Origin: a virus
Virus record (IMG/VR): IMGVR_UViG_3300029827_000001
Location: 22,763 to 86,762 of that record
DNA: 64,000 bases
Strand: one strand, 5' to 3'
The notes beneath the pieces are model-generated. The model made no database searches and was not told where the DNA came from. It worked only from the letters and a program-made list of their open reading frames with translations. Positions 12,669 through 31,859 of the stretch are shown here, piece after piece; within the stretch, counting starts at the first letter, position 1; each line of letters begins with the position of its first letter. Both the position numbers and the translations under genes were made by a program.

Positions 12669-13028
12669 TTATATTCTCTCTATTCCAAATGGACTAGCAT
12701 TAAATCTATGCCTACATTTAGCACACATAATATTAGTAGACGCACCACCACTAGGTCCTTCAAGAAATTTCTTCCCTCCACAATCTGGACAACAGTTATA
12801 TTTTCTGGCTATCTCAGTCAACTTATTATCATCTTTCTCAACCTTATCACATAACTCGGTACAGTTTGCTGCAACTATACATCCCTCACATGGATATATC
12901 TCTTTCTCAATTTCAATAACCACATTCGTTGGTTTAACCATTTCACAAGTAACATCTGATGAGTGTTCATACCCTTCATCTTTCACCAATCCAAAAAATC
13001 TCATAATACTTTGAATAATACTCACCAT
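12669..13028 (-). CDS. Cys-rich protein (PCxxCx5Cx3C plus Zn ribbon)
   Basis: YPCEGCIVAANCTELC; CPDCG...EGPSGG...CAKC. Confidence 0.65.
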   Translation of the reverse strand: MVSIIQSIMRFFGLVKDEGYEHSSDVTCEMVKPTNVVIEIEKEIYPCEGCIVAANCTELCDKVEKDDNKLTEIARKYNCCPDCGGKKFLEGPSGGASTNIMCAKCRHRFNASPFGIERI

Positions 13029-13318
13029 ACACTCCCCACCCCATAGTTAAAAGTACAGGTATTGCATCTATATACACTACATAATGTTGGAGGAATAGAA
13101 CCATCAAACCAACGAGTCTCTCCAGTCCCTATAATCTTTCCTCCACAGTATGCACATAGGTTAGGATACTTATCCTGCATATAATGAATAACCGCCATAT
13201 TTAACTTTATACAATCTTCATTTTTCATAGTACAAGCGGTTAATAATAAACATCCTCGGCAAGGCGGTCTATACCTTGCTAACTCTAGTTTGTTTCTCAA
13301 TCTTTTAAACCATCCCAA
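13022..13318 (-). CDS. Cys-rich protein (same family)
   Basis: PPCRGCLLLTAC; CAYCG...CNTC. Confidence 0.6.
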   Translation of the reverse strand: MGWFKRLRNKLELARYRPPCRGCLLLTACTMKNEDCIKLNMAVIHYMQDKYPNLCAYCGGKIIGTGETRWFDGSIPPTLCSVYRCNTCTFNYGVGSVW

Positions 13319-13330
13319 AGTTATCTCCTC

Positions 13331-13924
13331 TTAGTAGTGAATCTTTTCATCTCCTCTTCGATAAATCCTCTGAGTTATTTGAAGATCAAAATTAAAGTAA
13401 TGACCACAGTTTCTACACTCATAGGCGTCTGGTCCAACACTACCTATCAATCTACGTCTGGCGTCAACTACTAAAAATCTTATATGGTCAAAACGGTTGT
13501 GACCACAATCAACACAACATCTCTCAGATATAAACCTTTCTGTATCAAAATGTCTTTTTTCTTTAACTTCCTCACAAAACTCAGTACAACTTGATATTAG
13601 CAAGCATTCTCGACACGGATAAATGGATTCTATTTTCCTTTTCTTAAACATAAAAAAGATATCAATGATACTTCTATTTAAAAAAGACAATACTAACTCT
13701 ATTGAATAAAATGCCGCTAGAAATACTAATGCGCTAGTTTTCTTAATGACCATTGATATTATTATCTGACTTGCAATACTTCCAAACAAACCGAATCTAA
13801 AAGCATTAACTCGGTGTCTTCTCCTCTTATTTCTAGCAATTATAAGAGGTTCAATAACATCATCAACTAATATATTACTACGTAAAGTCTTTTTCTTAAG
13901 CTTAGTTTCCATCCACACCTCCAA
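13331..13924 (-). CDS. membrane-anchored Cys-rich protein (same family)
   Basis: Two hydrophobic segments, then YPCRECLLISSCTEFC and CVDCG...CRNCG. Confidence 0.65.
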   Translation of the reverse strand: MEVWMETKLKKKTLRSNILVDDVIEPLIIARNKRRRHRVNAFRFGLFGSIASQIIISMVIKKTSALVFLAAFYSIELVLSFLNRSIIDIFFMFKKRKIESIYPCRECLLISSCTEFCEEVKEKRHFDTERFISERCCVDCGHNRFDHIRFLVVDARRRLIGSVGPDAYECRNCGHYFNFDLQITQRIYRRGDEKIHY

Positions 13925-13955
13925 TCAAATAAAATAAACAAGCACAGCATTCATA

Positions 13956-13970
13956 AATTAATATATATAG
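13956..13970 (-). promoter_or_regulatory. class A motif CTATATATATTAATT (putative early promoter)
   Basis: One of 7 near-identical copies, each upstream of a leftward gene block. Confidence 0.7.
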
Positions 13971-14074
13971 TTTATTGAAAGATGAAAAATTATAAATTTA
14001 AACTCGAGCGAGATACTTTTTTGGAATATGGTAACAAATAAATGATAGAATTTGATTTTTAAAAAGGAGTCAGT

Positions 14075-15040
14075 ATGAAAGTGAAAATTGAAAGATCAAT
14101 AAGGCAAGCTCTATCTCCTCATAGATTTGGTTCATGGGGAGACAACTTTAAATGCTCATCGGCAAATGGATCAAAACCTTCATTTAACATTGATGGTATG
14201 CTAATGGTCAATATCATTCATGACCTAATGATTAGTGGATACTGGAAATATGAAAATGAAGGTGATATACCAAAAAGTTGGAAAAAAGAAATTGTCTGGA
14301 AAAATCGAGAACCAATATATCATAAGAATACTTGTAATGATGCTTATGATAGTTTTCTTAAGAACTCAAATGATAAGAGAACTAAAGAATATTCTTACTC
14401 TGAGTTGTCAACAAAAATGTACCCATTCCTAAGAGATAGAATCAGTAGTGCATCATCTTTTAAGAAGACAATTATTAATCTTAGCAACCTAAGGTTTAAC
14501 TTAAATCTAAGGATAAGATCTGTATATCACTCCAAGAAAACTCTATATAATAATAAGACTTTTAAAAACTTTACTATTGAGTTTCCTGAAATTGAAACAT
14601 TCTATCTAAATACAAAAAATAATCCTCCATCTAGTTTAATGGACTTTGTGATAGTTGATGAAACAGATTTTAGTCGAGGGGGAATATCTGATCTAAAGTT
14701 CTATATAAAACTCCATAATCCATTGATGGCAGTTATGCGTCAAGGAGCAATGTATATAAACTTTGACTGGATACCAGAAGAAATCTATACTACTAAAATG
14801 AATAGTTATAGTAAATTTCTATATATACTGATGCTGGCGGGAAAAATTAATAAAGAGTATGAGTATACGATATATGAAATAGTTGATAGATTACAATTAA
14901 ATCCTAATCAAAGCATTAATCAACTTTGTGGTTTAGTTGAAGGATATCTAGGAAGTCTGGAAAAAAATCAGTTCATAACAGTAAATAAGATAAACGGAAA
15001 ATTTAAAAATAGAAGGTATTTTATTACTAATAGGAAGTAA
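14075..15040 (+). CDS. putative replication-initiator-like winged-helix protein
   Basis: EYSYSEL...FKKTIINL, FYIKLHNPL, YSKFLY, YTIYEIVDRLQL...YLGSLEKNQFI resemble plasmid Rep wHTH architecture; sits at the main strand switch before a 310-bp AT-rich gap. Confidence 0.45.
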   Translation: MKVKIERSIRQALSPHRFGSWGDNFKCSSANGSKPSFNIDGMLMVNIIHDLMISGYWKYENEGDIPKSWKKEIVWKNREPIYHKNTCNDAYDSFLKNSNDKRTKEYSYSELSTKMYPFLRDRISSASSFKKTIINLSNLRFNLNLRIRSVYHSKKTLYNNKTFKNFTIEFPEIETFYLNTKNNPPSSLMDFVIVDETDFSRGGISDLKFYIKLHNPLMAVMRQGAMYINFDWIPEEIYTTKMNSYSKFLYILMLAGKINKEYEYTIYEIVDRLQLNPNQSINQLCGLVEGYLGSLEKNQFITVNKINGKFKNRRYFITNRK

Positions 15041-15208
15041 GAACATTAGTAAGGCAGTAAGTATACTATTTTACTCTGTGAGTGGAATTTAAGGAAAAAA
15101 ACTACGTTATTTGAGAAAAAATGTATTAAACTAAAATTGAAATTTAATAACAATTTCATACAATTATAGATCTCAGTTCCCTATATGATTTATGATAATG
15201 ATTATGAA

Positions 15209-15254
15209 CACTTTGGTATAGATAGCTAGGTTGAGAACCTGCTATACCAAAGTG
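15209..15254. repeat. 13-bp inverted repeat in AT-rich intergenic region
   Basis: cactttggtatag (15209-15221) / ctataccaaagtg (15242-15254). Confidence 0.75.
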
Positions 15255-15349
15255 CTTTTGGGCATGCGCCCAGGTTATTAAAGAACAAATTCTTATAGGA
15301 AAAATTCAACCTTAATAAATTTATTAAGGTTCAGAAAGGAGATCAACGA

Positions 15350-17341
15350 ATGTTTAATGGAGATGAAACAATTTGGGTAAATCAAAAGGAATTCCAGTAC
15401 AAAGATGTAGAGTTTGGATCAGCTTCAATGCTAGATATAGCTACTTCAATCAACACGAAAGATTATAAGTACTTCTCTTATGTAACTCTAAATATCTCAA
15501 TTACTTCAGATTCAGATCGTACAAGAAGAAGCTGTAACCTTCAAATTCAAGATGTGAAGAAACTCTTCAACTCATTCAGAGAAGTATCAAAAGATTATGA
15601 GGAGGCATATTATAAGAATTCAGAAATCTCTCTCAAGGTTGGAGATAGATATTTGGAGTTCAAGTATAAAGAGTCAACCTCTGGAACTAGATGTGTGATA
15701 ATCATAATTGCCTATAGTGAGAATGATTATGGCAGAGTAATAGTACCATTGGAAGATTTTGAGACAATTATTCATATATTCTCAACTTTCTTTTATGGTT
15801 ATCAGAACTTTAGGAAAGAGTTAAAAGATCAAATTGTTAATCATAAGATTGCTGAAACTAACTTATCAATAGAGAGAGGTATAAGGTTACTCCCATCTTC
15901 TATTTCAATAGGAGGTATGGAAACTCCAACTTTAGATACAGAAACCAAAACTCCTTCTGATGAGCAAGATCTTCTAAAGGACTTTGAGAAACATATAGAT
16001 GAAAGTCTTGAGAAACCTCTTGAGGAAGAAAAGAAAATTCAGGCAGAAGAGAAAATGGAAGTTATTCCAGATATTAATAGTAGTTTTATTAAAGACACCT
16101 TGAAGTTAGATTTAGCAAATTATGAAAGAATACTAGTTGCTGCATCTGGAGAGTATAACTCAACTCAAGCAGTTATAGATAGATTGAAAGAGTCAATGTC
16201 CTTACCTAAAGATTTTATGGATCTTCCAGGGATCTCCGAGAAAGATTATAAGTCAACATTATATATTTCAAGATTCAATTATCTTACAGCATTCAAATTA
16301 TATATAAGAGATAAAAGTCCAGTTCCCATTTCAATGCCCCCAATAAAATATAAACCAGATCATTCAAAAGTTCATAGTTCTAACGTTGAGTTAGCATATG
16401 ATCTTCTTGTTATTAGTGCTTACCTGAAGAATCTGACGCAAAAGATCGCTCAGAAAAATGCTGATAGTCAGGAGAATAAAGCATTATTCTATTATGCGCA
16501 TAGATGTTTTACAGATATCTTGTGCTTTAGTTTTCTAGATGAAAAAGATGCTGACATTATTAAAAATTGTGTATTAAGTAGATTTCGAGATTATGAAAAA
16601 GCTGGTTTCTTTGCTCAATATCAAAACTTATTGTTTGAGAAAACTTGTACTCCTATAAGTGAGAAAGACATATATAGTTTTCTCGATTTATTAGTTCAGA
16701 AAGTACTCCCATCAAAGATGTATGTAGATGACTTTCATAGTAAACTTTTTGAAGATCGTTTACTAGTACCACCTTCAAACAATATTAGTTTAGAACAAAT
16801 AATAAATGAGGTTGTTAAGATTAACGTTCTACATTGTGTTAATGAACTCAATATTTATGAGGTTGATCTTGCTCAGCTAAATCAAATAATTGATTCTCGA
16901 GTTTCTCCGGAAGTATTTGATATTTTGCGAACTCCTAAAAGTACAAGGAAACAAGTTGAGAAAGTGAAATATACCTCAAATCTTCATTGGTATTTTAATA
17001 AGTACAGAGGAGATCTCCCAAAAGGAGAGGGTGATAAACTTGTTGAGTACTTTAAAGTATTGGGAGAGAACGATTTTCCATTTAATAACCCTCCAGTTAA
17101 TTTGGAAGATCTTGATGAAAGGTATGTACGAGCACTATATCATCATAATAACTTAGAGGGAAGTAAGAGAAATTTAGATAGAAATGGTTTTGTTACTTAT
17201 ATTCACGATAGTTGTGATATGACCAAAAGGGATATTCTTGATAAATATAAAGCAGAAGAAGAATCATCTGAAAAGGGCGAAAGTACTGAACAACCAGCGA
17301 CCGATGCAGATATATTTAATAATATCTCATGGGATTTATAG
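15350..17341 (+). CDS. large hypothetical protein
   Basis: 663-aa ORF, AAGGAG RBS, acidic C-terminal tail ending ISWDL. Confidence 0.75.
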   Translation: MFNGDETIWVNQKEFQYKDVEFGSASMLDIATSINTKDYKYFSYVTLNISITSDSDRTRRSCNLQIQDVKKLFNSFREVSKDYEEAYYKNSEISLKVGDRYLEFKYKESTSGTRCVIIIIAYSENDYGRVIVPLEDFETIIHIFSTFFYGYQNFRKELKDQIVNHKIAETNLSIERGIRLLPSSISIGGMETPTLDTETKTPSDEQDLLKDFEKHIDESLEKPLEEEKKIQAEEKMEVIPDINSSFIKDTLKLDLANYERILVAASGEYNSTQAVIDRLKESMSLPKDFMDLPGISEKDYKSTLYISRFNYLTAFKLYIRDKSPVPISMPPIKYKPDHSKVHSSNVELAYDLLVISAYLKNLTQKIAQKNADSQENKALFYYAHRCFTDILCFSFLDEKDADIIKNCVLSRFRDYEKAGFFAQYQNLLFEKTCTPISEKDIYSFLDLLVQKVLPSKMYVDDFHSKLFEDRLLVPPSNNISLEQIINEVVKINVLHCVNELNIYEVDLAQLNQIIDSRVSPEVFDILRTPKSTRKQVEKVKYTSNLHWYFNKYRGDLPKGEGDKLVEYFKVLGENDFPFNNPPVNLEDLDERYVRALYHHNNLEGSKRNLDRNGFVTYIHDSCDMTKRDILDKYKAEEESSEKGESTEQPATDADIFNNISWDL

Positions 17342-17352
17342 GAGAATTTTGA

Positions 17353-17964
17353 ATGGGTTTAAGTTTGGGAAAATCCCTTGATCGTTGCTTTAGTATAAGA
17401 CTACCTATTCTCGATGGTTACTATAATATAGGGATATTTTTTAACAAGAGGTCAACTTTTTTACTTTTTAAAGTTGACCCCGATTTCCCTAAAGGAGATA
17501 GACTCTCTCATGGAATGAAGATAAATATGTTTAAGAATATTGAGTCATCTAAATTCTGTGAGACCTTTTTAAACTTACACAGCTATAGAGGAGACAATCT
17601 AGATATCTTAAATCAGTTTGACTCAATCAAAGATGAATATTACTCAGAAATAAACTTTATCTTAAATGAAACAATAGTTCTATCAAAAGTAAGTGTTGGT
17701 GATAAGTCTCTATTTGATCAATTAATAATATATGGTTTTACTCTTTCCGCTTTTCAGTCTGAGATAATCTTTCTCCTAGCTGAAAGGCAAAATATTGTAA
17801 AAAGATTAAGCAAGAAAATTGTAAGAACAACTGGAATTCAAGTTTCGACAACATCTGCCATAGATATGATAAATGAGTTTCATGAGGATTTTAGAACTGG
17901 AGGAAAACTAGCAACAAAACCAAGGTTTCCATCAGATGAAATAATAAAATTAGAGGATGAATAA
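17353..17964 (+). CDS. hypothetical protein
   Basis: 203-aa ORF, AGGAG RBS, TAATG overlap with the next gene. Confidence 0.65.
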   Translation: MGLSLGKSLDRCFSIRLPILDGYYNIGIFFNKRSTFLLFKVDPDFPKGDRLSHGMKINMFKNIESSKFCETFLNLHSYRGDNLDILNQFDSIKDEYYSEINFILNETIVLSKVSVGDKSLFDQLIIYGFTLSAFQSEIIFLLAERQNIVKRLSKKIVRTTGIQVSTTSAIDMINEFHEDFRTGGKLATKPRFPSDEIIKLEDE

Positions 17965-19181
17965 TGCCAACCAAACCAGATAGATATGAATATACTTTTA
18001 TACATAATGTTTATGCTCATTTCTTTAGTGATACTGCAAAGTATTTCTCTGAGCATGTTTGGCCAAGATTTGAGTGGGTAACAATTGGAACATACGATAA
18101 AGCTGTTGAGTATATAACAAAGAGGCAACAGGAGCAAAGGGAAACTGATAAACCGTTGCTTCCTGCTCTTATTCTAAATCCGACTGGTGATTGGAATGTT
18201 TCTGACTATGGGGGTAAGCAGTATTGGAGATTTCCAAACTTGCAACCTGGAATGGTCGATAAATTATTTGACCCCATATATCAAGATCAGAATGTTTTAA
18301 TCACTCCAGCTTTTACAAGAATAAGAGGAGATATAGAATTAATTATGCTTCTAAACTCCTTTTATGAGTACTGTGATGTTAGAACATTATTTCTTTTAAT
18401 ATTTGGTGGTATGGAGAGAATAATCTATCCTCGATGGTTTCATAGTTTTATAATTCTTCCAGACGAGCTAATAAACTATAGATATGATAATCCAGTTACT
18501 GGACTTTCATATAAATTGGACTGGGACTCAGCAAATGCTAATCATCAACTAGTAAAAACTACGAACAGGAACGAGTTAGTTGTTCCCTGTCAAATTAGAC
18601 CATGGTATAAACTAACTTCTATAGGAGATGCCAGTACTAGATATGGTGGAGATCGACTAGCAGACTGGCGACTTAGTGCTACAATTGAATATGAAGTTGA
18701 AATGCCAACTTTTCTTGTTATTAAATCAGATTATCTAGCTGAAAATATTGAGTGGGAATTAAGGTATGAGTCAGTTTATACAAAGTATCCTGATTATAAT
18801 AGTGAACTTCCAGGAGACAGGAATTCTTGGAAAAGTCATTGGGATTGGAATCTAGATGAAACATCTAGTACTATAATTGAGCTTGAGGATGGACCAGATA
18901 TAGTTAAGTCAGAGGATTTTAGTTTTAAAACCAGATATTTTCATGTGGTGACTACTGCTGAGGCTGACTCGACTTCAAACATTATAATATCCATGCCAGA
19001 AGCAATAACTGATGAGAAGCGGCTAATTGTAAATTCTTATGATGGTCCACTAAGTTATTGGGATCATTATGAACTTATTGATAGTGGTACTAAGATGGTT
19101 ATAAAAATACCGGAAGTTAAGTTAAATGAAGGAGATATTATAGAACTATACGTTTATGAGGTAACTTATGAAAATCCTTGA
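17964..19181 (+). CDS. putative virion protein (possibly tail terminator/neck-like)
   Basis: 405 aa; KPLLPALIL followed by beta-rich segments is loosely reminiscent of T4 gp15-type proteins. ORF certain, function weak. Confidence 0.35.
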   Translation: MPTKPDRYEYTFIHNVYAHFFSDTAKYFSEHVWPRFEWVTIGTYDKAVEYITKRQQEQRETDKPLLPALILNPTGDWNVSDYGGKQYWRFPNLQPGMVDKLFDPIYQDQNVLITPAFTRIRGDIELIMLLNSFYEYCDVRTLFLLIFGGMERIIYPRWFHSFIILPDELINYRYDNPVTGLSYKLDWDSANANHQLVKTTNRNELVVPCQIRPWYKLTSIGDASTRYGGDRLADWRLSATIEYEVEMPTFLVIKSDYLAENIEWELRYESVYTKYPDYNSELPGDRNSWKSHWDWNLDETSSTIIELEDGPDIVKSEDFSFKTRYFHVVTTAEADSTSNIIISMPEAITDEKRLIVNSYDGPLSYWDHYELIDSGTKMVIKIPEVKLNEGDIIELYVYEVTYENP

Positions 19182-19728
19182 TAGGTACTTAGAAAGTTTG
19201 ATAGGTCAAGAGGATAAAGTCCAAGTCGAAGTAAACGTTGCGGCAGCGGTAATAATGAGACTTGATGACACAGGAAGTCCCGAAGTACTGTTGATTCAAA
19301 GAGCCAGAGAAGATCATTGGCCCAGTCACTGGGAATTTCCTAGAGGAAAATGTGATCAAGGACCAGATGAGAAACTATACCCTTGTTTGAAAAGGGAAAT
19401 AAAAGAAGAAACTGGACTTGATGTTATCCCTGTTAGGTTTATAAACAAATTCGAGTATCTGGCAGATGGGGGAACTAGGAGATCAACTCAGTATAACTAT
19501 TTATGTAAAATGAAAGATCCTGGTCAACCTATTAAGTTATCAAAAGAGCATCAAGACTATCGTTGGGTAAGAACTGCTGGAGAAGTTGAGCTTATGGTTA
19601 ATGCAGGTGAGATGAAGAAGACTCTTGTAAAAGTTTTTGATTCAGACCATAAAGTAGTAACATATCCTGAGAACGGAGCAACTGAGAAGATTGAAGAATC
19701 CATTGAGAAACTATTAGGAAAAATATGA
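19168..19728 (+). CDS. Nudix hydrolase
   Basis: VLLIQR, WEFPRGK...E...CLKREIKEETGL Nudix box, LSKEHQDYRWV. Confidence 0.92.
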   Translation: MKILDRYLESLIGQEDKVQVEVNVAAAVIMRLDDTGSPEVLLIQRAREDHWPSHWEFPRGKCDQGPDEKLYPCLKREIKEETGLDVIPVRFINKFEYLADGGTRRSTQYNYLCKMKDPGQPIKLSKEHQDYRWVRTAGEVELMVNAGEMKKTLVKVFDSDHKVVTYPENGATEKIEESIEKLLGKI

Positions 19729-20195
19729 AACTTATAATTAGACAAACTGGATTTTTTCTATCATTAACTGGACTAAAACCATTTAGGACACCTGCAATAG
19801 TAGATATTTCAAAAGTAAATCTTAACACTCTCAAACTTGAATTGAAGCAACAAGGAGTTGGGAAGTATGAGATTTCTGAGGAACCTTATCTTCCCATATC
19901 TATAGAACCAGATAAAAAACCAGCGGTTAGTGATAGTTCAAATAAGTTAAATGAGATACATAAAATGTTGAGTCAATTGTTGTCTAGACAACCAACAGTT
20001 GAGCATCATTATCATGCTGCTGTACAAACTTTAGATAGATTGGTTGAAGAGAAATCTGAACCTGATATAGAAGAATTTATTCCTGATATTGATCTTGAAG
20101 AATTCTCAGATGTTGAACTAGAATATAGAACTGAGAAATCTGAAGATGCATTTGGTACAGCAGAAGCATTAAGAAAACTAAAAGGAGATAAATAG
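19725..20195 (+). CDS. hypothetical protein directly upstream of actin homologue
   Basis: 156 aa; N-terminus (FRTPAIVDIS...LKQQGVGKYEI) resembles 60709..61005 (VRTPVSIDVT...IQSRGILGYEV). Confidence 0.65.
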   Translation: MKLIIRQTGFFLSLTGLKPFRTPAIVDISKVNLNTLKLELKQQGVGKYEISEEPYLPISIEPDKKPAVSDSSNKLNEIHKMLSQLLSRQPTVEHHYHAAVQTLDRLVEEKSEPDIEEFIPDIDLEEFSDVELEYRTEKSEDAFGTAEALRKLKGDK

Positions 20196-21284
20196 ATGAG
20201 TGATGAGAAGAAAAATGGCATCATCGAAGAACCTGCCAAGCAACCTCCACCGCCACCTCCAAAGAAAGAAGATAGTAGATTATTTGTAGGTCTAGATTGT
20301 GGGACAATGAATATATGTTGTGCTAGGAGTGATAATAATGTAGTTAAAATTACTAGAAATGTTTTTCTTCCCTTAAATGATGAGTCGATCTCAATGTCTG
20401 AACTATCGAATATCAGCTATGTCAAATCGGATGATAACGATTTATTTATTATAGGGGAAGATGCATTTAAATTTGCAAATATATTTGGTCAAGCTGTTTC
20501 AAGACCTATGGAGAAGGGACTAATTTCTCCAAAGGAGATATCTGCTATTGATGTTCTAACATTAATAATTAGAGATTTAATAGGTCCAATAAAAGGTAAA
20601 GATGTATACTGTGCATATAGTATTCCTGCTGAAGCAATTGATGAAAGTAGATCTGTTGTTTATCATACGAGAGTATTTGGAAGAATTCTCAGTGCACTTG
20701 GTATAAATCATAGACCAGTTAATGAAGGTGCAGCAATCATATATTCTGAATGTAGTCAGGAGAGGTTCTCTGGAGTTGGCATATCTTTTGGAGCTGGAAT
20801 GTGTAACGTTGCAATAATGTATAAAGGTGTAGAAGTATTAAAATTTTCAACTTCAAGAAGCGGAGACTATATTGATAATTCTGTGGCTGAGTCTCTTAGT
20901 ATAGTTCCTAATAGAGTTACCTCTTTAAAGGAAAGAAAACTAGATTTAGCTAAGGGATTTGTAGCTGAGAAAGACAAAAAAATTAGGAGAGTTTTGGAAG
21001 CAATTGAGTATTACTATAATGCTCTTATAAATTATACTATAAAGAAGATAATTAATGAATTTAATGAAAAAGTTGATATTGAAGTTGATGAAAGTTTGCC
21101 AGTCATTATATCTGGAGGAACTTCAATGCCAAACGGATTCCTGGAACTATTCAAATCTACAATATCTCAATATGAGTTGCCTTTTGGAGTAAGTGAAGTT
21201 AGACGAGCAAAAAATCCACTTACTTCAGTTGCAAACGGTTTACTAGTATTGACACTTGCAGATTTTTCCGGAACAAAAAAATAA
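20196..21284 (+). CDS. actin-superfamily ATPase, volactin-like
   Basis: Phosphate-1 VGLDCGTMNI, GEDAFKFANIF...RPM, connect PVNEGAAIIYSE, phosphate-2 GVGISFGAGMCNV, adenosine IISGGTS, PLTSVANG. Confidence 0.88.
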   Translation: MSDEKKNGIIEEPAKQPPPPPPKKEDSRLFVGLDCGTMNICCARSDNNVVKITRNVFLPLNDESISMSELSNISYVKSDDNDLFIIGEDAFKFANIFGQAVSRPMEKGLISPKEISAIDVLTLIIRDLIGPIKGKDVYCAYSIPAEAIDESRSVVYHTRVFGRILSALGINHRPVNEGAAIIYSECSQERFSGVGISFGAGMCNVAIMYKGVEVLKFSTSRSGDYIDNSVAESLSIVPNRVTSLKERKLDLAKGFVAEKDKKIRRVLEAIEYYYNALINYTIKKIINEFNEKVDIEVDESLPVIISGGTSMPNGFLELFKSTISQYELPFGVSEVRRAKNPLTSVANGLLVLTLADFSGTKK

Positions 21285-21301
21285 AATAGGAGGAGTTAAC
21301 A

Positions 21302-21706
21302 ATGAAGCCAGAGAATATGGTAGATCTTATACTAGATGGAAAGTATAATAAAGTTAAAAAGGCTGAAAAAATTACTGATAGGTTACTAGAGTTTGAAGAT
21401 GTTGAAACTACAACAGGCACTGATGTTGGAGATTCTTCTGGTCAACTATCTCCAGTTGATGATCTGAAAGATAAAAGAAAAGAAGACATCGCTGAAAAAA
21501 TCAATACGGCCTTGAAAGAAGCTGATGAACTTACTGCTGATGATTTTAAAGACTACTTTGATGACCTCAAGAAGAAGGGTCTGACTGATGAAGATAAACT
21601 AAAGGGTATGCTTAGTCGGGCAAAAGAAATTGCGAAGAAGCAAGGTAAAGAGAATGATAAGCAAGCGGTTATGGGAATTATGCAAGGTTTCATGGGTGGA
21701 AAATAA
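21302..21706 (+). CDS. acidic hypothetical protein (possible head-internal protein)
   Basis: AGGAGGAG RBS and its own GAACAAA-TAAA motif at 21271. Confidence 0.6.
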   Translation: MKPENMVDLILDGKYNKVKKAEKITDRLLEFEDVETTTGTDVGDSSGQLSPVDDLKDKRKEDIAEKINTALKEADELTADDFKDYFDDLKKKGLTDEDKLKGMLSRAKEIAKKQGKENDKQAVMGIMQGFMGGK

Positions 21707-21732
21707 TCGAATTTTCGAAAGGGGTTTGACAA

Positions 21733-22992
21733 GTGAGGAAAAGATTAAGGTACTCAGAGCAGCCCGTAGTAAAGGAGATAACGACTTCTGAACTAAAAAG
21801 GTTTGGCCTATCAGAAGATTCAGTAAGGTTGGTTGAAAGAATTGAGGAACTACGATCTGACCCTCCAAATATAATTATTGCTGAGTGTATCAAGACTGCT
21901 CACTTCATTCAAAATAAGTTTAAACAGCAAGTAGTAAGAAAGAAGAATAGATATGTAATGGGTCTCGGAGTCTATGAGCAGCTAAAATTTGAACCAAGAT
22001 TAAGATCGAAGATTCTGAAACCTGCTAATGTAAAGTTTAAAAATATATATAGACCATATACTGGTCAAGATCTTGAGGATGAAACTTTACTAGTCTGGAG
22101 AACTGGAGGGATAGGAGATCTTCTTTTCATTCAACCAAATTTAAATTATCTCAAAGAAATATATCCAACCTGTGAAATAATTCTTGGGTGTGGTCCTCAA
22201 TATCAAGCAATGGTTGAGGATTGGCCTTCCGTTGATAAGATTCTAGATCTACCATTTCCATTTCAATATTTAATTCGTTCTGATTATCACGCGGTATTTG
22301 AAGGAGTTATTGAAAGATGTAAAGAAGCACAAATTACTAATGCTTATAACTTGTTTACTAGATGGTTAGGGTTGGATTTACCAAAAGAAAAGCTCCTTCC
22401 TAAGCAAACTGTAAAAGCTGATAAAGTTGAAGAATGTAAAAGAATACTAGAAGATGAATGGAATTTGGAAGGTATAGATTTTATTATAATTCAACTAAGA
22501 GCTAGTTCTCCCGTTAGGTCTCCTCGCTTAGGTCTTTGGGGTGATATAATAAATCGTATAACAAAGAATGACCATGTAGTAATTATTACTGATGCTCCTC
22601 ATTATGCGAAGGAGATAGATTTTTTAATTGACAAGTTTATAAAAGATAAAGACCTTGTGTTTAATTTTGCTCGTCATTCGAAAAGTTTAGATTATACAAT
22701 TGCTCTCACATCTTTAGCAAAGATGGCAATATCAACTGATACTGCGTTGATGCATCTTGCTGCTGCTCTAGATGTTAAGAGTTTTGGAATATATGGACCT
22801 TTTCCTGGAGAGATTCGACTTACTACTTATCCAAAAGCTAGATGGATAAATGTTCAATTACATTGTACTCCATGCTTTTTACATGGTCATAAACCCTGTC
22901 CGAACTCAGCATTAGATGGAACCTCTAAGTGTTATGAAGAGTTGAATTTAGATGAGTTTGCTGAAAAGGTTGAGGAACTCTATAATGATTAA
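21733..22992 (+). CDS. glycosyltransferase family 9-like (heptosyltransferase fold)
   Basis: LVWRTGGIGDLLF, ISTDTALMHLAAAL, GIYGPF, CTPC...C...C. Confidence 0.85.
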   Translation: MRKRLRYSEQPVVKEITTSELKRFGLSEDSVRLVERIEELRSDPPNIIIAECIKTAHFIQNKFKQQVVRKKNRYVMGLGVYEQLKFEPRLRSKILKPANVKFKNIYRPYTGQDLEDETLLVWRTGGIGDLLFIQPNLNYLKEIYPTCEIILGCGPQYQAMVEDWPSVDKILDLPFPFQYLIRSDYHAVFEGVIERCKEAQITNAYNLFTRWLGLDLPKEKLLPKQTVKADKVEECKRILEDEWNLEGIDFIIIQLRASSPVRSPRLGLWGDIINRITKNDHVVIITDAPHYAKEIDFLIDKFIKDKDLVFNFARHSKSLDYTIALTSLAKMAISTDTALMHLAAALDVKSFGIYGPFPGEIRLTTYPKARWINVQLHCTPCFLHGHKPCPNSALDGTSKCYEELNLDEFAEKVEELYND

Positions 22993-23815
22993 AATTGCAG
23001 TTACTATACGCAATCGACTTGCGATTACAAAAAAATGTGTAGCTGCGATTAAGAAACACTCAAAAATTCCTCATCAATTATATTTATATAATAACTCTAC
23101 TAGTCATCTTATAAAAGAACATTTTGAGTATGCATATAATCTCTACAGGCAAGGTTTAGTCACTCAGGTAACTTTTAATACAGATGCTAGTACATATAAA
23201 GCATTTAGTAAAGCTTCTGCATTAAATGCTTTCGGATTAGCTCATGAACAAGATCCAAACAAAGACAAATTTTACTACTTAGTATTTCTGGATAATGACG
23301 TTATTGTAACTCCAAATTGGGATTCTACTTTATATGAAGCCTGGAAATTTGTTAATGAAAAGAAATTATCTCATATAAAAGTAGTAGGTCAACTTCCTGG
23401 AGGAATAAAAAGTAGAACACCTTTAAAGACTACTGTTGCTGGATGTAATATGGCAACAGGAAAACTGGGTGGGTCTGGTCTATGGACTGTCAGATCAAAT
23501 TTCTTTCGAGATGTTGGATTTCTTGAGATAAAAAATCTTATTGGCCATAATAAACGTCATGATCAGATGTACTGGAGTATAATGAATAGTAAGAATCATG
23601 GCAAAGATTATATTCTAGGTGTTAGGAAGAAGATTGGCTATCACTGTGGATCTTATGCTGGATCCGTATGTAATGTTTTGACAAAATCTGGTAAGAATAT
23701 AGATAAGAATGAAGCAATAAAATTTGAGTCTCAGGAGAAATTAATTGAGTCAATGACATTTGAAGAATTTTATGAGAGGATAAGCGAGGATCCAAAACTT
23801 CAACGAGGTTGGTAA
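22985..23815 (+). CDS. glycosyltransferase family 2-like (GT-A)
   Basis: IAVTIRNRLAITKKC, LYNNST, LVFLDND, FRDVGF. Confidence 0.8.
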   Translation: MIKIAVTIRNRLAITKKCVAAIKKHSKIPHQLYLYNNSTSHLIKEHFEYAYNLYRQGLVTQVTFNTDASTYKAFSKASALNAFGLAHEQDPNKDKFYYLVFLDNDVIVTPNWDSTLYEAWKFVNEKKLSHIKVVGQLPGGIKSRTPLKTTVAGCNMATGKLGGSGLWTVRSNFFRDVGFLEIKNLIGHNKRHDQMYWSIMNSKNHGKDYILGVRKKIGYHCGSYAGSVCNVLTKSGKNIDKNEAIKFESQEKLIESMTFEEFYERISEDPKLQRGW

Positions 23816-24732
23816 TGCAGGAAGCAGTCTTAATGGGTCCCTTTATTGGGGAGATGGGTTGGGAATTATTAAGGTTTGCTCCAATGCTCCCGTATATGAA
23901 GCTAAAGAAATATAAGAATCGAAATATAAAGTATATAATCTTTACGAGGCCAGAGAGGTTTGACCTATATGGTGCTTGGGCAGATACTCTAGTGCCTCTT
24001 CGTATTGAAAATGACTATTACAAATATAAACCTGAATGCTTTAGAGCAATTGGTTTTTCAGTCGAGGACTATAAAAAATTAGCCCAACAGTTTAAACTAC
24101 AATTTTCCAAAAGGTTTAAAATTGTTGAGCATATATTTCCCAACATAACTAAACCATCATACTTAAGAAAAAATCAATATCCACAAAAGTTAATGGTTTA
24201 TGATTTTCGACCAAGAAAGTCTAACCGACTTTTGGTTAGTAAATATGTTCCTAATGATAAACCGGTTATAGTTCTTGGTCCTAGATTTAGGAAAGGGTTT
24301 AAAAGAAATTGGCCACATTGGCAGAAATTTTACAATATGATTTCTATTAATAGCTGGTTAATGAATAATTTTCACTTTGTTATTTGTGGTAGAGAACCTG
24401 AGTATATCCCGGATGAGAAAGAAAGGTTTTTTGATATTAATAGTATTGAAGAAAGTGAAAGTAGTTCTCTAATTGGACTTACTCTTGAGACAATAAGGCG
24501 TTCTATATTAGTAGTTGGATCTCAATCTGCTATACCAAATATTGGAATGATTTTAAAAGTTGAAGTACTACAGTGGGGCAATGAACCAAAAGAACATACG
24601 AAAACTTATAACGTATTTAATACGAAAGTACACTTCATTACTGATAGGCAGTATCAAACAAAACCAGAAAAAGTTATCTCAGAAATGACGAAAATTCTAA
24701 AAACTAAACTTCATGAAGGAGTAAAGAAATGA
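23809..24732 (+). CDS. putative GT-B glycosyltransferase (GT9-like)
   Basis: FIGEMGWE, KRNWPHW, LVVGSQSAIPNIG; in GT cluster. Confidence 0.6.
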   Translation: MVMQEAVLMGPFIGEMGWELLRFAPMLPYMKLKKYKNRNIKYIIFTRPERFDLYGAWADTLVPLRIENDYYKYKPECFRAIGFSVEDYKKLAQQFKLQFSKRFKIVEHIFPNITKPSYLRKNQYPQKLMVYDFRPRKSNRLLVSKYVPNDKPVIVLGPRFRKGFKRNWPHWQKFYNMISINSWLMNNFHFVICGREPEYIPDEKERFFDINSIEESESSSLIGLTLETIRRSILVVGSQSAIPNIGMILKVEVLQWGNEPKEHTKTYNVFNTKVHFITDRQYQTKPEKVISEMTKILKTKLHEGVKK

Positions 24733-25010
24733 GTGAAAACGTATGGTTAATCTCGAATCGAAGAAGGGTAGATACATTAATCCGACAGTTTGAAGAGTAT
24801 CGAATGATGGGATCTTATGGAGGAAAAATAAACTTTGGTGAAGGGATCCTTTTAGTTAGAGGTCTAGTAAATGAACTTGAAAGAGTAAACAAAGAACTAG
24901 AAAAGAAAGCGGATGAAGATGTTATTAAGAAACTGAAAGCCAGAAATGAGATTTTAGAAACAGAAATCAAGCATCTAAAGCAAAAGATACAAAGTTTAAA
25001 GGGAGAATAA
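24729..25010 (+). CDS. small coiled-coil protein
   Basis: 93 aa, heptad-rich C-terminus, ATGA overlap. Confidence 0.6.
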   Translation: MSENVWLISNRRRVDTLIRQFEEYRMMGSYGGKINFGEGILLVRGLVNELERVNKELEKKADEDVIKKLKARNEILETEIKHLKQKIQSLKGE

Positions 25011-25011
25011 A

Positions 25012-25764
25012 ATGGCTCTTCCTATTGACTCAGTCTACGCGGGTACTAATGTTAAAATAGCGGACGTACAAGCAAAATATAATGACTGCCTTACTTTATT
25101 TCCTGATATTCAAAATCAACTTAATATAGTCTCAGCAAATGTAGCATCTATGTATAATGACTCAGTTGATGCAATTAGTACAGAGATAAGTGGTTTACTT
25201 GAACAGTATGGTATAAACTGTGCATCTAGAGCATACTTTGGTCAAGATGCTGATGACTTGATAACTAATAAGTATGATATATATAAGAAGATGCAGAGTG
25301 GAGATATATATGGGCCAATTACTAATACATTAGATAGTATGCTTGATGAAACTGGTCCCTTTGACTGTAGTATACCAGCAATTGAAGCTTGGGTCAGGAG
25401 TCTATTTGATGGACTATCATTTGAGACAGATAGTCGTGTGGACCTTATGAATACAGTAAAAGATTTTATAAATAGTGCACAAGAATTTTTTGACGATGTA
25501 AATCGTGCCTTAGGATTCTTAGGAGAGTGGTTGGGGTGTGGTGAGCAAATGTTTGGCAACTTTGTTGATCTTGGGCCAGCCATGGAGACATATAATACAT
25601 ATGCTAATGAAACTTTTAGTGCAGTTCAAGATGCAAAATCAATAACAGACAATCCAAAAGAAATTTATGACCGGTCAGTAGCACAAACGAAAGAAACATT
25701 AGGTTTACAAACAAGAATTGATGATCTTAAAAGTGAGGCAGATTCAATATTGACTATATTCTAG
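25012..25764 (+). CDS. acidic helical protein, possibly baseplate-associated
   Basis: 250 aa directly upstream of PAAR; function by context only. Confidence 0.5.
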   Translation: MALPIDSVYAGTNVKIADVQAKYNDCLTLFPDIQNQLNIVSANVASMYNDSVDAISTEISGLLEQYGINCASRAYFGQDADDLITNKYDIYKKMQSGDIYGPITNTLDSMLDETGPFDCSIPAIEAWVRSLFDGLSFETDSRVDLMNTVKDFINSAQEFFDDVNRALGFLGEWLGCGEQMFGNFVDLGPAMETYNTYANETFSAVQDAKSITDNPKEIYDRSVAQTKETLGLQTRIDDLKSEADSILTIF

Positions 25765-25772
25765 GAGGTAAA

Positions 25773-26075
25773 ATGCCAGCAACTGCATATCTTACGTCCA
25801 TTGGAGTTGGAACTTGTTGTTGTCATAATGATCCAAAGTGCAGATCCAAAACTGGGATGATTGTGACTGGTTCTCCAAATAAAGTTACAAATGGGTTACC
25901 AAACGCTAGACTCGGTGATTTATTCTTGGGAACTTGTGGTCATATATCTGTAATGGTAGGAGGATCACCAAATACTTTTGTGAACGGACTACCTCAGTGT
26001 AGAACTGGTGATCCTTTTTCAGGATGTATAGTTGGAGTAATTGTGACTGGTTCTCCAAACTCTATCACTAATTAG
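25773..26075 (+). CDS. PAAR-domain spike tip protein (T4 gp5.4-like)
   Basis: IVTGSPNKVTNGLPNARLGD, CGH, GSPNTFVNGLPQCRTGD, IVTGSPN. Confidence 0.9.
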   Translation: MPATAYLTSIGVGTCCCHNDPKCRSKTGMIVTGSPNKVTNGLPNARLGDLFLGTCGHISVMVGGSPNTFVNGLPQCRTGDPFSGCIVGVIVTGSPNSITN

Positions 26076-26103
26076 ACAAAAAAAGGGAGGTGGGGAACCT
26101 CCC
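26076..26103 (-). terminator. intrinsic terminator of leftward cassette
   Basis: gggaggt-gggga-acctccc stem, followed on the - strand by a T7 tract. Confidence 0.65.
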
Positions 26104-26126
26104 ATAAATCACCCCACCTGGTTGAG

Positions 26127-26498
26127 TTATGAAGATGCAGCCTCTTTTGGCCGCTTCTCTTCGAACATAATGACTTTACTCTCATCCACTTTCGGTCTGG
26201 TCTTAAATTTCCCTTCTCTTATATCTTTCTTATGCTGCTTCCACATCTCAATCTTTTCAACTCCGGTATCTAGAAGATCAGCAAAGAAGACTTGAGAATA
26301 CGAGGATCCACACTGAGGACAAGACAAGTAAGATAGAGAATTATATGCACATCTACAATTCTCACACATCTTGGCGTTTGTCCAATTAGACACTGCTTCG
26401 ATGGGAATTTCTCTCTTCTTGACATTGTCTTCATGGATAAGAGAATAAACAACTACACCTATCAGTACCCCAACTACTAATACAATTAACGTCTGCAT
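26127..26498 (-). CDS. membrane-anchored Zn-ribbon protein
   Basis: N-terminal TM; CENC...CPQCGS. Confidence 0.65.
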   Translation of the reverse strand: MQTLIVLVVGVLIGVVVYSLIHEDNVKKREIPIEAVSNWTNAKMCENCRCAYNSLSYLSCPQCGSSYSQVFFADLLDTGVEKIEMWKQHKKDIREGKFKTRPKVDESKVIMFEEKRPKEAASS

Positions 26499-26672
26499 AT
26501 CTATCAGCCCCTTTCTATTTATTTATACATTTTGGACAGAGACCAGTTTTCAAGAATTTCTTTATTTCATCCTCATTTACAAACTGGTCTATTGACACAT
26601 TTGAAAGACACATAGGACAACGTCCTTGCTTGTCTGATTGAGATATACTCCTTTTTTGTTTGTTCTTGTCGT

Positions 26673-27122
26673 TCATATTGGATACTCCCCTAAGTGTTCA
26701 AGTACCACTTGAGGATTTCCCTTCTTATTCTTCTTTTTTAGTTCTTTTAGTTCTTCCTCAAGGGGTTCAATCAACCTCTTTCTGACGTGGTTTGTCATCT
26801 CATTGAATTGGTCATAGAGATGAGGAGTTCGAGCGATTATTTCTTCTTGAAAAGCTTCAACCATCTCTAGCTGGTTTTTCATGTGGTTTATTCTTTTAGA
26901 CATCTCGGTAGACCCTTTGATGACTTCAATATTTGACTTTAGTGAGACGTTGGAGCTTTCGAGTACCAGCCTCATCTTTTTATGCATATTGGTCAGTGCA
27001 AGTATTAATATGATTAGTAATGTGAAAGAGACAACATTAAGCACTAGTTGTGTAAGCATAAAACGATGGACTGCTTTTGGTCCTGCTTCTGTAAATTTCT
27101 TATACCGTAACATCGTTAACAT
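26673..27122 (-). CDS. membrane-anchored coiled-coil protein
   Basis: Single TM, then helical; AAGGAG RBS. Confidence 0.65.
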   Translation of the reverse strand: MLTMLRYKKFTEAGPKAVHRFMLTQLVLNVVSFTLLIILILALTNMHKKMRLVLESSNVSLKSNIEVIKGSTEMSKRINHMKNQLEMVEAFQEEIIARTPHLYDQFNEMTNHVRKRLIEPLEEELKELKKKNKKGNPQVVLEHLGEYPI

Positions 27123-27135
27123 AGGTGCTCTCCTT

Positions 27136-27447
27136 TCACCTAGCTTGCTGTTTTAGTTCTTGAATCTCCTGGTTGCTTAGAGCACGTATTTGTATTACAG
27201 TAGCTGATGGTATTGCCAACCACAGACTTCTATGGAAATAGTCTCCACCTGGATCCTCCAAGTAGCAATAGACAAAGGTCTCTTCCGGAGAGACTTTAAA
27301 ATACTGAGTGTTGATGGATTGTATTGCCACCATAAACTCAGGGTCTCCAGCTCTTCTGTCTTGATTTGGCAACCAGTACTTATAGGTAATATTAAACATA
27401 AGTACCAGCATGATGATAAAACCTAAGAATTTCTTCCCCATTAGCAT
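27136..27447 (-). CDS. predicted secreted/membrane protein
   Basis: Hydrophobic N-terminus, AAGGAGG RBS. Confidence 0.6.
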   Translation of the reverse strand: MLMGKKFLGFIIMLVLMFNITYKYWLPNQDRRAGDPEFMVAIQSINTQYFKVSPEETFVYCYLEDPGGDYFHRSLWLAIPSATVIQIRALSNQEIQELKQQAR

Positions 27448-27456
27448 CCTCCTTAT

Positions 27457-27615
27457 TTATTCATATTTTGGTAGATTTTCTTTCGCATACTCTTTTGCTC
27501 TCTCAAAAAGGTCGTCAATGGATTCATGCTCCATTATATCGAAGGTTTCCATATGAGTTGCTTTGGTGGTATCAATTATTACTTCAATTCTAAATTGTCT
27601 TACTATTTCTGGCAT
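27457..27615 (-). CDS. small hypothetical protein (52 aa, below cutoff)
   Basis: MPEIVRQFRIEVIIDTTKATH...; AAGGAG RBS; fills the gap between neighbours. Confidence 0.55.
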   Translation of the reverse strand: MPEIVRQFRIEVIIDTTKATHMETFDIMEHESIDDLFERAKEYAKENLPKYE

Positions 27616-27617
27616 CT

Positions 27618-28112
27618 CTATATCTCCTTCCTTCGGAGTAATAGGAAGACAAAGTCAGTAGTTATTCTAACCTCACTTTTGTTATAACGCCAACCTCCTA
27701 TCCCTACTCCATATCCTGAAGCTTCATTGACTGTTTCACTTCCTAGGAAAAGTACCTGATGAGCACCGTCATGACTTGCAAACTTTAGAATCCGATCCAT
27801 TACGTCGTTGATGCTACATTTCTTTGGACCCGACATTCTTATAGTCAAAAATCCAATTGGTTCTAAACCTTCTGGCATTTCTTTGACCAGTTCGCTCTTA
27901 GATGTTGGTTCATACTTTCCGCTTAGATCATGTACCACAATCAGCGCACAGATCTCATCAGGTTTAACTCCAGATTTCTCAAGTCTTTTAAAAACTTCGA
28001 ATACTCCTTCTGGTGTACTTTCAAGAACTTCTGGAGATTTCTGAGTTTCAGCAAAACAAGTTGTCGAAAACAGGACTAAAACTATCAGTATGACTTGCTT
28101 AGAAAAGTTCAT
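27618..28112 (-). CDS. predicted secreted protein
   Basis: Signal peptide MNFSKQVILIVLVLFSTTCFA. Confidence 0.65.
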   Translation of the reverse strand: MNFSKQVILIVLVLFSTTCFAETQKSPEVLESTPEGVFEVFKRLEKSGVKPDEICALIVVHDLSGKYEPTSKSELVKEMPEGLEPIGFLTIRMSGPKKCSINDVMDRILKFASHDGAHQVLFLGSETVNEASGYGVGIGGWRYNKSEVRITTDFVFLLLRRKEI

Positions 28113-28135
28113 AATTTCTTTTCCTCCTTAAAGAA

Positions 28136-31847: not shown

Positions 31848-31859
31848 GGAGTTACAAAA

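Follow-up and report, generated by a model that had tools for sequence, protein, structure and literature searches.

In-depth studies of phage cytoskeletons cover two cases only, i.e., the tubulin PhuZ, which forms a spindle, and AlpC, an actin encoded by a prophage. PhuZ provides intracellular positioning in nucleus-forming jumbo phages (Chimalliviridae; PMC7950403, PMC8314001). AlpC is encoded by prophage CGP3 of Corynebacterium glutamicum, where alpA lies upstream of alpC within one operon, and AlpA binds DNA repeats in its own promoter region and co-sediments with AlpC (PMC4446434). The adaptor AlpA links the actin to phage DNA, and both proteins are needed for efficient phage DNA replication (PMC4446434, PMC5539076). 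A cellular point of reference is the volactin VolA (HVO_2015) of Haloferax volcanii, which polymerises dynamically in vivo and takes part in a rod-to-disk shape change; in the respective paper (PMC10869688), neither 'virus' nor 'phage' occurs, and volactin appears only as a haloarchaeal cell-shape protein. Here, we analyse a volactin-family actin of 362 amino acids (aa) and the 156-aa protein encoded directly upstream of it (the partner), both found in a stretch of virus DNA (the window) that comprises bases 22763-86762 of the 86,762-base IMG/VR record IMGVR_UViG_3300029827_000001, i.e., 64 kb out of 86.8 kb. All coordinates below are window positions. We consider it probable that the two genes form a phage-encoded actin cytoskeleton module, i.e., a filament-forming actin-fold ATPase together with a dedicated adaptor.

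An earlier note, made from the letters of this DNA alone, had singled out both open reading frames (ORFs), and both are real. Their features are listed in the following, where model confidence refers to AlphaFold2 (AF2) and is given as predicted local distance difference test (pLDDT).

19725-20195, + strand: partner (putative adaptor) gene, 156 aa; ORF with an iterative profile family, AF2 mean pLDDT 76.2
19725-19880, + strand: N-terminal folded domain of the partner, residues 1-52 (beta strands, one helix, one strand), pLDDT 95-97 in residues 1-50
19935-20051, + strand: helical hairpin/coiled-coil region of the partner, residues 71-109 (helices 71-87 and 92-109), variable in length and sequence
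20076-20090, + strand: FIPxI motif of the partner (FIPDI, residues 118-122), with F118 and I119 nearly invariant and P120 invariant in 35 sequences
20142-20183, + strand: C-terminal amphipathic helix of the partner, residues 140-153, consensus ddAAxALkxLRK; helix 143-153 in the model, L149 invariant
20182-20187, + strand: Shine-Dalgarno AAGGAG, inside the partner's last codons and 8 nt ahead of the actin ATG, read from the sequence
20196-21284, + strand: Volactin-family actin-fold ATPase, 362 aa, from Pfam PF25216, AF2 model and Foldseek
20196-20276, + strand: disordered N-terminal arm of the actin with a QPPPPPPKK run, residues 1-27, pLDDT below 50 for residues 1-23
20289-20315, + strand: phosphate-1 motif GLDCGTMNI, residues 32-40, with G32, D34, G36 and T37 invariant in 30 sequences
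20769-20807, + strand: phosphate-2 motif SGVGISFGAGMCN, residues 192-204, with G193, G199, G201 and N204 invariant; family-specific by clade comparison
21111-21140, + strand: adenosine-binding motif SGGTSMPNGF, residues 306-315, with S306, G307, G308, T309 and F315 invariant; shared across clades

With regard to family membership, the 362-aa protein matches the Pfam family Volactin (PF25216) at model positions 3-319 of 321 (E 1.7e-70, 238.5 bits vs a cut-off of 35), and a re-run on the whole genome record gives 238.6 bits. Its score for MreB_Mbl (PF06723) is 18.7 bits and thus under the respective cut-off of 27, while no Hsp70 or kinase family of Pfam is matched. PHROGs yield a weak match only (phrog_691 'partition protein', E 7.1e-6), which is confined to the C-terminal half (residues 179-351), and a phmmer sequence search of the PDB returns nothing better than E 0.36. 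The Volactin match supports the claim of the earlier note that the actin is by sequence of volactin type and not of MreB, ParM or MamK type, and the motif strings quoted there are all present in the translation (GLDCGTMNI, GEDAFKFANIF...RPM, NEGAAIIYSE, GVGISFGAGMCNV, GDYID, GGTSMPNGF, PLTSVANG and QPPPPPPKK).

We also compared the clade consensus sequences of 23 + 45 viral rows, 42 cellular rows and 2 outgroups. The signature motifs GLDxGTMN, NE(G/A)xAxIYSE, SFGAGMxN, SGGTSxPxGF and PLxxVAxG are common to both viral clades and to the 42 cellular archaeal volactins, while the MreB-like outgroups show DIGFGTTD at phosphate-2, unlike the volactin-family motif. The N-terminal arm varies in length and sequence, with a median of 22 aa in the window's clade vs 3 aa in cellular volactins. 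Its poly-proline run, highlighted in the earlier note, is present in the window actin and not conserved: we find it only there and in the closest relative, and other members of the window's clade carry a short acidic-then-lysine-rich arm with at most one proline.

The AF2 model of the actin, computed from a 30-sequence alignment, has a mean pLDDT of 88.0 and a predicted template-modelling (TM) score, pTM, of 0.86. Its top Foldseek matches in the PDB are filament-forming prokaryotic actins, namely BeeR 8r2n (E 6.2e-15, query TM-score TMq 0.67), MamK 5ljv (TMq 0.68) and MreB 1jcf; for this group, TMq ranges from 0.61 to 0.68 and E from 6e-15 to 6e-14 at 14-18% identity. These are followed by eukaryotic actins and actin-related proteins (Arps), and the first non-filament member of the acetate and sugar kinase/Hsp70/actin (ASKHA) superfamily, EutJ, appears at rank 40. 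That is, the nearest solved structures of the protein are filament formers and not sugar kinases or Hsp70. A cultured phage, Bacillus phage G (498 kb), also encodes an actin-fold protein, the 371-aa Gp506 (BFVD G3MAP7, TMq 0.56, 13% identity), which belongs to a different family.

Four relatives (P0123, P0124, P0125, P0127) carry an intein at the phosphate-2 motif, i.e., at Volactin model positions ~179-183 (Intein_splicing E 1e-19 to 1e-23). The carrier actins measure 706-798 aa and are 47-57% identical to the window actin, and all of them except P0127 also contain an HNH endonuclease domain. Inteins typically occupy conserved sites under functional constraint, and the placement observed here is typical of a site where such constraint is strong. 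Other relatives show further extensions of the Volactin domain. In P0214 (1160 aa), it is fused to a Wzz/GNVR and a ParA/MinD-like P-loop domain, which resembles a polysaccharide co-polymerase or BY-kinase, and P0126, P0134 and P0163 have N-terminal extensions of 340-580 aa that lack a Pfam match.

The family is large. We obtained 1015 representatives of actin relatives at 50% clustering (E up to 0.001) and 1166 clusters at 90% identity (E up to 1e-5). Within IMG/VR, a relative is encoded in 546/596 pattern-matched stretches, many of them on 200-400 kb contigs; INPHARED holds only two, both from uncultured huge phages (485 and 595 kb). The cellular sampling for PF25216 covered archaeal genomes only, and the family was found in 61 of the 301 genomes sampled from the phylum to which a Methanosalsum genome belongs, and in 19 of 201 from that of a Thermoplasmatales metagenome-assembled genome (MAG). 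The cellular copies score 360-465 bits vs ~240 for the viral type.

To place the window actin, we use a maximum-likelihood tree of 115 rows that includes two MreB-like outgroup rows (IQ-TREE, LG+G4, quick search, support by the Shimodaira-Hasegawa-like approximate likelihood ratio test, SH-aLRT). The window's clade comprises 23 rows, i.e., 21 from IMG/VR and 2 virus-like MAG contigs, with support 99. The 42 cellular archaeal rows form a single clade that excludes the window actin (SH-aLRT 99), such that its assignment to a haloarchaeal volactin clade, as proposed in the earlier note, does not hold. A small partner-less viral group (L004-L006) is sister to the cellular archaeal clade (support 94), a second viral clade has 45 rows (support 83), and the base joining the three tree groups is left unresolved. 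A tree that unites the two partner-bearing viral clades, a grouping named after inspection of the tree, is not rejected (log-likelihood 15.8 above the free search, p-value of the approximately unbiased test, p-AU, 0.748). The phage actin is thus a member of Pfam Volactin that stands outside the archaeal volactin clade, and it is not a recent capture from that clade.

The two genes are tightly coupled. The partner's TAG (20193-20195) abuts the actin ATG at 20196, i.e., the actin starts immediately after the upstream stop, as had been noted before. The partner's own ATG overlaps the stop of the preceding NUDIX gene in an ATGA (19725-19728), with AGGA located 5 nt upstream. Taken together, the abutting stop and start, the internal Shine-Dalgarno and the co-occurrence of the genes suggest that the pair is co-transcribed.

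Co-conservation was assessed by counting each distinct actin once, provided that its locus extends at least 3 kb upstream. The partner is present in 18/21 loci of the window's clade (adjacent, i.e., with a gap of at most 60 nt, in 15) and in 34/35 loci of the second viral clade, where the lone miss (L064) is an artefact of the overlap rule, i.e., the partner ORF overlaps an over-extended actin ORF call. The upstream gene is thus co-conserved in related phages, as the earlier note had expected of a true partner. A profile search also places it immediately ahead of the actin gene in LR745208.1, a published huge phage of 485 kb. The partner was found in 0/7 archaeal genome loci and in 0/2 loci of the small partner-less viral clade, and its profile returns nothing in the cellular loci L098-L136. 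Compared to the window's copies, actins show 60-67% identity where partners show 27-36%, and the FIPxI and C-terminal motifs persist in the partner despite this low identity.

Cellular archaeal volactins have an upstream gene of their own. In 7/7 loci having upstream sequence (L010-L016), a DUF7139 gene of 243-270 aa precedes the volactin, and its product is a candidate cellular volactin partner. Homology of this gene to the phage partner was considered and rejected (hhalign probability 0.5%).

The partner itself has no Pfam or PHROG match, and a direct search with the 156-aa sequence finds 9 clusters of relatives only. When an iterative profile was run against the retrieved loci, i.e., against their 5931 ORFs of at least 40 aa, it converged on 78 partner-family ORFs, 77 of which are located upstream of the actin and on its strand. 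The remaining match is weak (E 2.1e-5); it is a 98-aa ORF at 60709-61005 near the portal gene of the window and could be explained by chance, by low complexity or by distant paralogy. Judged by these searches, the 156-aa gene founds a new, fast-evolving, phage-only family.

Its 63 unique members share a common architecture, i.e., an N-terminal domain of ~55 residues with the conserved core 'I.DLG..v..G', a variable proline-rich or heptad-like linker, the FIPxI motif and the C-terminal ddAAxALkxLRK helix. In accordance, the AF2 model of the window's partner shows a flexible tail after helix 92-109 that ends in helix 143-153. The acidic character ascribed to this tail in the earlier note is seen in the last 40 residues, which hold 13 D/E and 6 K/R. 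Structure searches do not assign a fold: Foldseek against the PDB gives no match below E 3.9, a VIA-wide search reaches at best Z 4.1, mostly for coiled-coil rows at residues 65-117 and without a decisive fold match, residues 1-63 alone score Z 3.6-3.9 at most (HisG C-terminal domain, TT1823, DUF3240), and an atlas structure search yields TM 0.37 or less. The N-terminal domain is presumed to be the cargo-binding part.

For the complex of partner and actin, predicted with both alignments, we observe an interaction prediction score from aligned errors (ipSAE) of 0.73 vs 0.08 for the best of 3 controls. The ipSAE mark is reached by 116/157 solved complexes and 2/215 mismatched pairs, counts that hold only roughly because our own alignments were used. 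Prediction runs agree in at least 68% of contacts, with a partner pLDDT of at least 64. On the partner's side, the predicted interface covers residues 117-153, i.e., exactly its two conserved motifs, with residues 117, 119, 120 and 122 contributed by the FIPxI region; on the actin side, it comprises residues 156-168, 183-191, 210-211 and 339-359. The contacts of lowest error connect partner residues 142-150 and 152-153 with actin residues 183-191 and 348-355, and among these the best pairs join partner 143-149 to Y183, S184, S187, R190 and F191 as well as to the C-terminal helix 348-355. This prediction is in line with the idea of an adaptor put forward in the earlier note.

According to this prediction, the partner docks through its FIPxI motif and its C-terminal helix, at a site between the helix following the catalytic Glu (NEGAAIIYSE) and the C-terminal helix of the actin. 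We take NEGAAIIYSE to be the counterpart of the helix that comes after the catalytic residue in actin and MreB, and, given this correspondence, we presume the docking site to be the hydrophobic cleft that receives ParR in ParM and WH2 domains in actin. In the plasmid system ParMRC, the C-terminal helix of the adaptor ParR inserts into the cleft at the end of the ParM filament.

The mechanism we propose is as follows. The 362-aa protein would be an active, filament-forming actin-fold ATPase of a virus-specific Volactin clade, and the 156-aa protein its dedicated adaptor, whose flexible C-terminal part would dock on the actin while the well-folded N-terminal domain, probably paired through the helical hairpin, would hold cargo. 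The pair would be translated as a coupled unit from a long co-directional gene array, and the filaments would move or position cargo, i.e., phage DNA, the replication site or particles, during infection of a presumably bacterial cell. The job would be similar to that of ParMRC in plasmids, AlpAC in prophage CGP3 and the PhuZ tubulin in nucleus-forming jumbo phages.

A wider version of this proposal is put forward tentatively, since we hold it for somewhat more doubtful than the module itself. Pfam Tubulin is found in 0/5 actin-carrying records, among them 3 complete genomes of 241, 277 and 407 kb. A very large, globally spread and tubulin-less group of huge phages may build its own actin cytoskeleton, in which an actin of volactin type, virus-specific and of a lineage that is a deep sister to the archaeal volactins, is joined by an adaptor that plugs its tail into the filament-end cleft and whose N-terminal domain carries the genome, the replication compartment or particles. 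This could be a second phage cytoskeleton, independent of PhuZ and possibly standing in for it.

Several observations weigh against the proposed module. The structure searches found no recognisable DNA-binding fold in the N-terminal domain of the partner, and the median net charge of this domain is only +1, which argues against DNA as cargo. No repeat array is found within 13000-22000 and no tandem repeat near the pair, i.e., there are only two-copy short repeats and a 24-nt palindrome, and the partner gene is not preceded by a separate intergenic region. With regard to co-conservation, the partner is missing at 3/21 loci of the window's clade (L021, L036, L037) and is not detected by profile in LR756511.1. 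ParM-ParR peptide and actin-WH2 complexes have solved structures, so the docking result may partly reflect the model's memory of such complexes. Finally, the interface is no more conserved than the remaining residues: the mean maximum residue frequency is 0.68 vs 0.67 elsewhere in the window's clade and 0.60 vs 0.70 in the second clade.

The genome context is that of a large tailed phage. CheckV estimates the completeness of the IMG/VR record to be 28%, which implies a genome size near 300 kb, and a relative with an 86% identical actin is a complete genome of 277,131 bases with direct terminal repeats. The window encodes a T4-like portal at 61739-63676, 40 kb from the actin-partner pair, whose closest cultured relatives are those of the Bacillus jumbo phages AR9 and PBS1 (~29% identity). 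The jumbo-phage setting suggested by the earlier note is well founded in this respect. Six actin-carrying contigs of 128-407 kb (G507, G516, G517, G523, G525, G526) are proviruses by IMG/VR class. No tRNA genes were found in the window. A promoter and terminator scan of 13500-27000 was uninformative, with 69 promoter-like sites vs 58.3 +/- 8.0 in shuffles and 9 terminator-like sites vs 5.5 +/- 2.3. Further features of the window are:

19168-19728, + strand: NUDIX hydrolase gene (Pfam NUDIX E 7.4e-17), family f9, an upstream neighbour conserved only in the window's clade
21733-36836: glycan-related co-directional gene cluster beside the actin-partner cassette
38233-38874: QueC-like gene
47178-50435: family-B DNA polymerase (PolB), 1085 aa, with an N-terminal uracil-DNA-glycosylase-superfamily (UDG) domain (E 1.6e-14, residues 34-173)
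51101-51772: QueE-like gene
elsewhere in the window: T4-type clamp loader, Dda- and DnaB-type helicases, primase
elsewhere in the window: thymidylate-synthase-like protein
elsewhere in the window: endolysin with GH108 (E 1.3e-22) and PG_binding_3 (E 2e-13)

The glycan cluster encodes a protein like glycosyltransferase (GT) family 9, GT1-family and GT-D-like glycosyltransferases, a polysaccharide pyruvyl transferase, a B12-binding radical S-adenosylmethionine enzyme, two methyltransferases and a hexapeptide acyltransferase, and it is broken into by a minus-strand block at 26127-28438. The QueC-like and QueE-like genes suggest a 7-deazaguanine modification of the phage DNA.

It is unlikely, in our estimate, that the actin acts on the host, i.e., that it copolymerises with, replaces or poisons the MreB-type cytoskeleton and alters shape, size or wall synthesis for a large burst, with the partner as a regulator (cap, nucleator or sequesterer) at the filament-end cleft. 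MreB is indeed among the nearest structures and the weak MreB_Mbl signal points in the same direction, but at an identity to MreB structures of 14-18%, copolymerisation is unlikely. Cappers and sequesterers also place a helix in the end cleft, such that the predicted position of the partner helix would suit them too; a separate, confidently folded N-terminal domain plus linker, as present in the 63 unique partners, however exceeds what a cap or sequestering peptide needs. The lack of centromere-like repeats near the operon and the large glycan-modification cluster next to the cassette are in favour of a host target, as is the role of the founding volactin in cell-shape change (PMC10869688).

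A function in virion assembly depends on how the neighbourhood of the pair is read. In the window's clade, the cassette is ordered 663 aa, 203 aa, 405 aa, NUDIX, partner, actin, a small variable gene, a GT9-like glycosyltransferase, 287 aa and 307 aa, and this order is collinear as far as a contig deposited under a Thermoplasmatales MAG. In the second clade, we find f2 (~450 aa), f6 (~180 aa), partner, actin, f1 (~400 aa) and f5 (~150 aa, with a weak Zn-ribbon match below the Pfam cut-off), sometimes with a Dps/ferritin-like protein and another gene between partner and actin. Other lineages have the pair beside the large subunit of ribonucleotide reductase, a UvsX-like recombinase or a polymerase exonuclease subunit. 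All 12 hhalign pairs between flanking families of the two viral clades, run without secondary structure, stay below 3% probability and thus provide no homology, such that the actin-partner pair is all that both clades have in common. The conserved block opens with the 663-aa gene, and the 310-nt intergenic gap in front of this gene contains a perfect 24-nt palindrome (15308-15331) that may be an operator, a terminator or an adaptor-binding site.

Given these data, we regard it as slightly less plausible still than an effect on the host that filaments and adaptor serve late in infection to transport or align procapsids, necks or tails, with the 663-, 203- and 405-aa neighbours as neck or tail proteins. 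This was the reading of the earlier note, which had placed the pair among probable virion genes. The block from the 663-aa gene to the actin is collinear throughout the window's clade, and T4-gp15_tss is found on 12% of the members of one atlas cluster resembling the 405-aa neighbour. Yet searches with the three neighbours yield nothing relevant in Pfam up to E 5, nothing in PHROGs up to E 0.01 and no profile match in the PDB below E 0.24, the 405- and 663-aa proteins have no INPHARED match either, and the recognisable neighbours are the NUDIX hydrolase and glycosyltransferases, with the portal 40 kb off. The placement among virion genes is therefore unsupported here, and the flanks of the other clades, including the Dps-like protein, are not shared with the window's clade.

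The proposed module, i.e., a filament-forming actin with its adaptor, was placed above in a bacterial cell. We consider it improbable that the virus instead infects an archaeon (Asgard or Thermoplasmatota) and that its actin reflects the archaeal origin of the host cytoskeleton. Actin relatives occur under archaeal MAG labels (Heimdallarchaeaceae twice, Thermoplasmatales, 'uncultured archaeon'), which counts against a bacterial host as well; among endolysin relatives, the labels are Heimdallarchaeaceae and, for a 255 kb contig, Thorarchaeota. A cellular volactin (405.7 bits) is likewise encoded in the Thermoplasmatales MAG, and the cellular family is archaeal among the sampled genomes from two archaeal phyla (61/301, 19/201). 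MAG labels, however, reflect binning and are no evidence of the host, the contig with the Thermoplasmatales label shows collinearity with the phage, and other relatives are bacterial by label (Calditrichaeota, 'bacterium', Patescibacteria, Minisyncoccales). Moreover, the viral actin branches outside the archaeal clade.

The gene content argues in the same direction. GH108 and PG_binding_3 families target bacterial peptidoglycan, and a GH108 + PG_binding_3 muramidase is encoded in 5 of the 13 records searched from the close subclade; the 13 are mostly fragments, and the complete 277 kb genome is among the 5 carriers. The GH108 domain is found in 0/17 records of other lineages. Together with the DnaB-type helicase, the T4-type clamp loader, the Dda helicase and the AR9 and PBS1 relatives of the portal, the endolysin points to a bacterial host. 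TFIIB and Sigma70_r2 are each found in 0/5 records and do not discriminate the host, and cluster taxon look-ups named 3 of 20, all of them Patescibacteria or Minisyncoccales MAGs, which is too few to map the range. Records of the group are repeatedly deposited inside archaeal MAGs (G004 contig C47, identical to L008, as well as P0028, P0055, P0337 and P0364), which is either systematic mis-binning or a host hint. A bolder variant, in which a part of the huge-phage group infects Asgard or other archaea, has equally poor prospects in our view.

A non-polymerising ASKHA ATPase, chaperone- or kinase-like and with the upstream protein as cofactor or substrate, is highly improbable, since the strong Volactin match comes without any Hsp70 or kinase family match, filament formers lead the PDB list and the founding volactin forms filaments (PMC10869688). 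In favour of such an enzyme, the fold is also that of sugar kinases, EutJ and Hsp70, and Hsp70-like proteins prevail among the viral fold matches.

Our preferred reading thus remains the actin-plus-adaptor module. Both ingredients have precedents, i.e., phage actin-plus-adaptor systems (AlpAC) are known and the volactin family was named, if only in 2024. What is new is a virus-specific branch of this family that almost always comes with an adaptor family not recognised before. A literature search did not find a volactin-family actin or this adaptor family in phages, where supplements of huge-phage studies were outside the search. Neither 'volactin' nor 'phage' occurs in the paper on Mad28, an actin-like protein of deep-branching magnetotactic bacteria (PMC12713370). 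Should filaments and docking prove real, actin would join tubulin as a polymer by which huge phages organise the cell they infect. The pair would also provide a two-protein system for asking how bacterial-type actins couple to cargo, with the FIPxI and terminal-helix motifs as direct targets for mutagenesis, and the depth at which viral and archaeal volactins part is relevant to the origin of this actin lineage.

Compared to known systems, the phage actin shares with VolA and PF25216 the full-length Pfam family, the signature motifs and the fold class. It differs from cellular archaeal volactins by an identity of ~34-39%, a score of 238 vs 360-465 bits, its separate virus-only clade, a longer disordered N-terminal arm, a viral context and an upstream gene that encodes the phage-only adaptor instead of a DUF7139 protein. 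BeeR, MamK and MreB are the best structural matches, but identity is low, MreB_Mbl stays below its cut-off and phosphate-2 reads SFGAGM instead of the D-x-G-x-G-T of this group.

By analogy, the closest functional counterpart would be AlpA/AlpC of prophage CGP3 or ParR/ParM. ParMRC likewise combines an actin-like filament with an adaptor, and the contact predicted for the pair has the same geometry. Here, however, the order is reversed with the adaptor gene first, no ribbon-helix-helix domain is recognised, no parC-like repeats were found and the actin would belong to a different family. AlpC/AlpA is also a phage-encoded actin-like ATPase with a small adaptor encoded upstream. It would differ from our pair in its actin family, and the partner studied here comes without a detectable DNA-binding fold and without a nearby repeat array; furthermore, its carrier is a lytic-type huge phage, whereas that of AlpC/AlpA is a temperate prophage. 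The statement of the earlier note that characterised jumbo-phage cytoskeletons are tubulin-based does not extend to phages in general, given that AlpC/AlpA is an already characterised actin with adaptor (PMC4446434). With PhuZ, the actin shares that it is a cytoskeletal polymer gene of a very large phage, but its fold is that of actin and not of tubulin, in accordance with the 0/5 actin-carrying records that show a Pfam Tubulin match.

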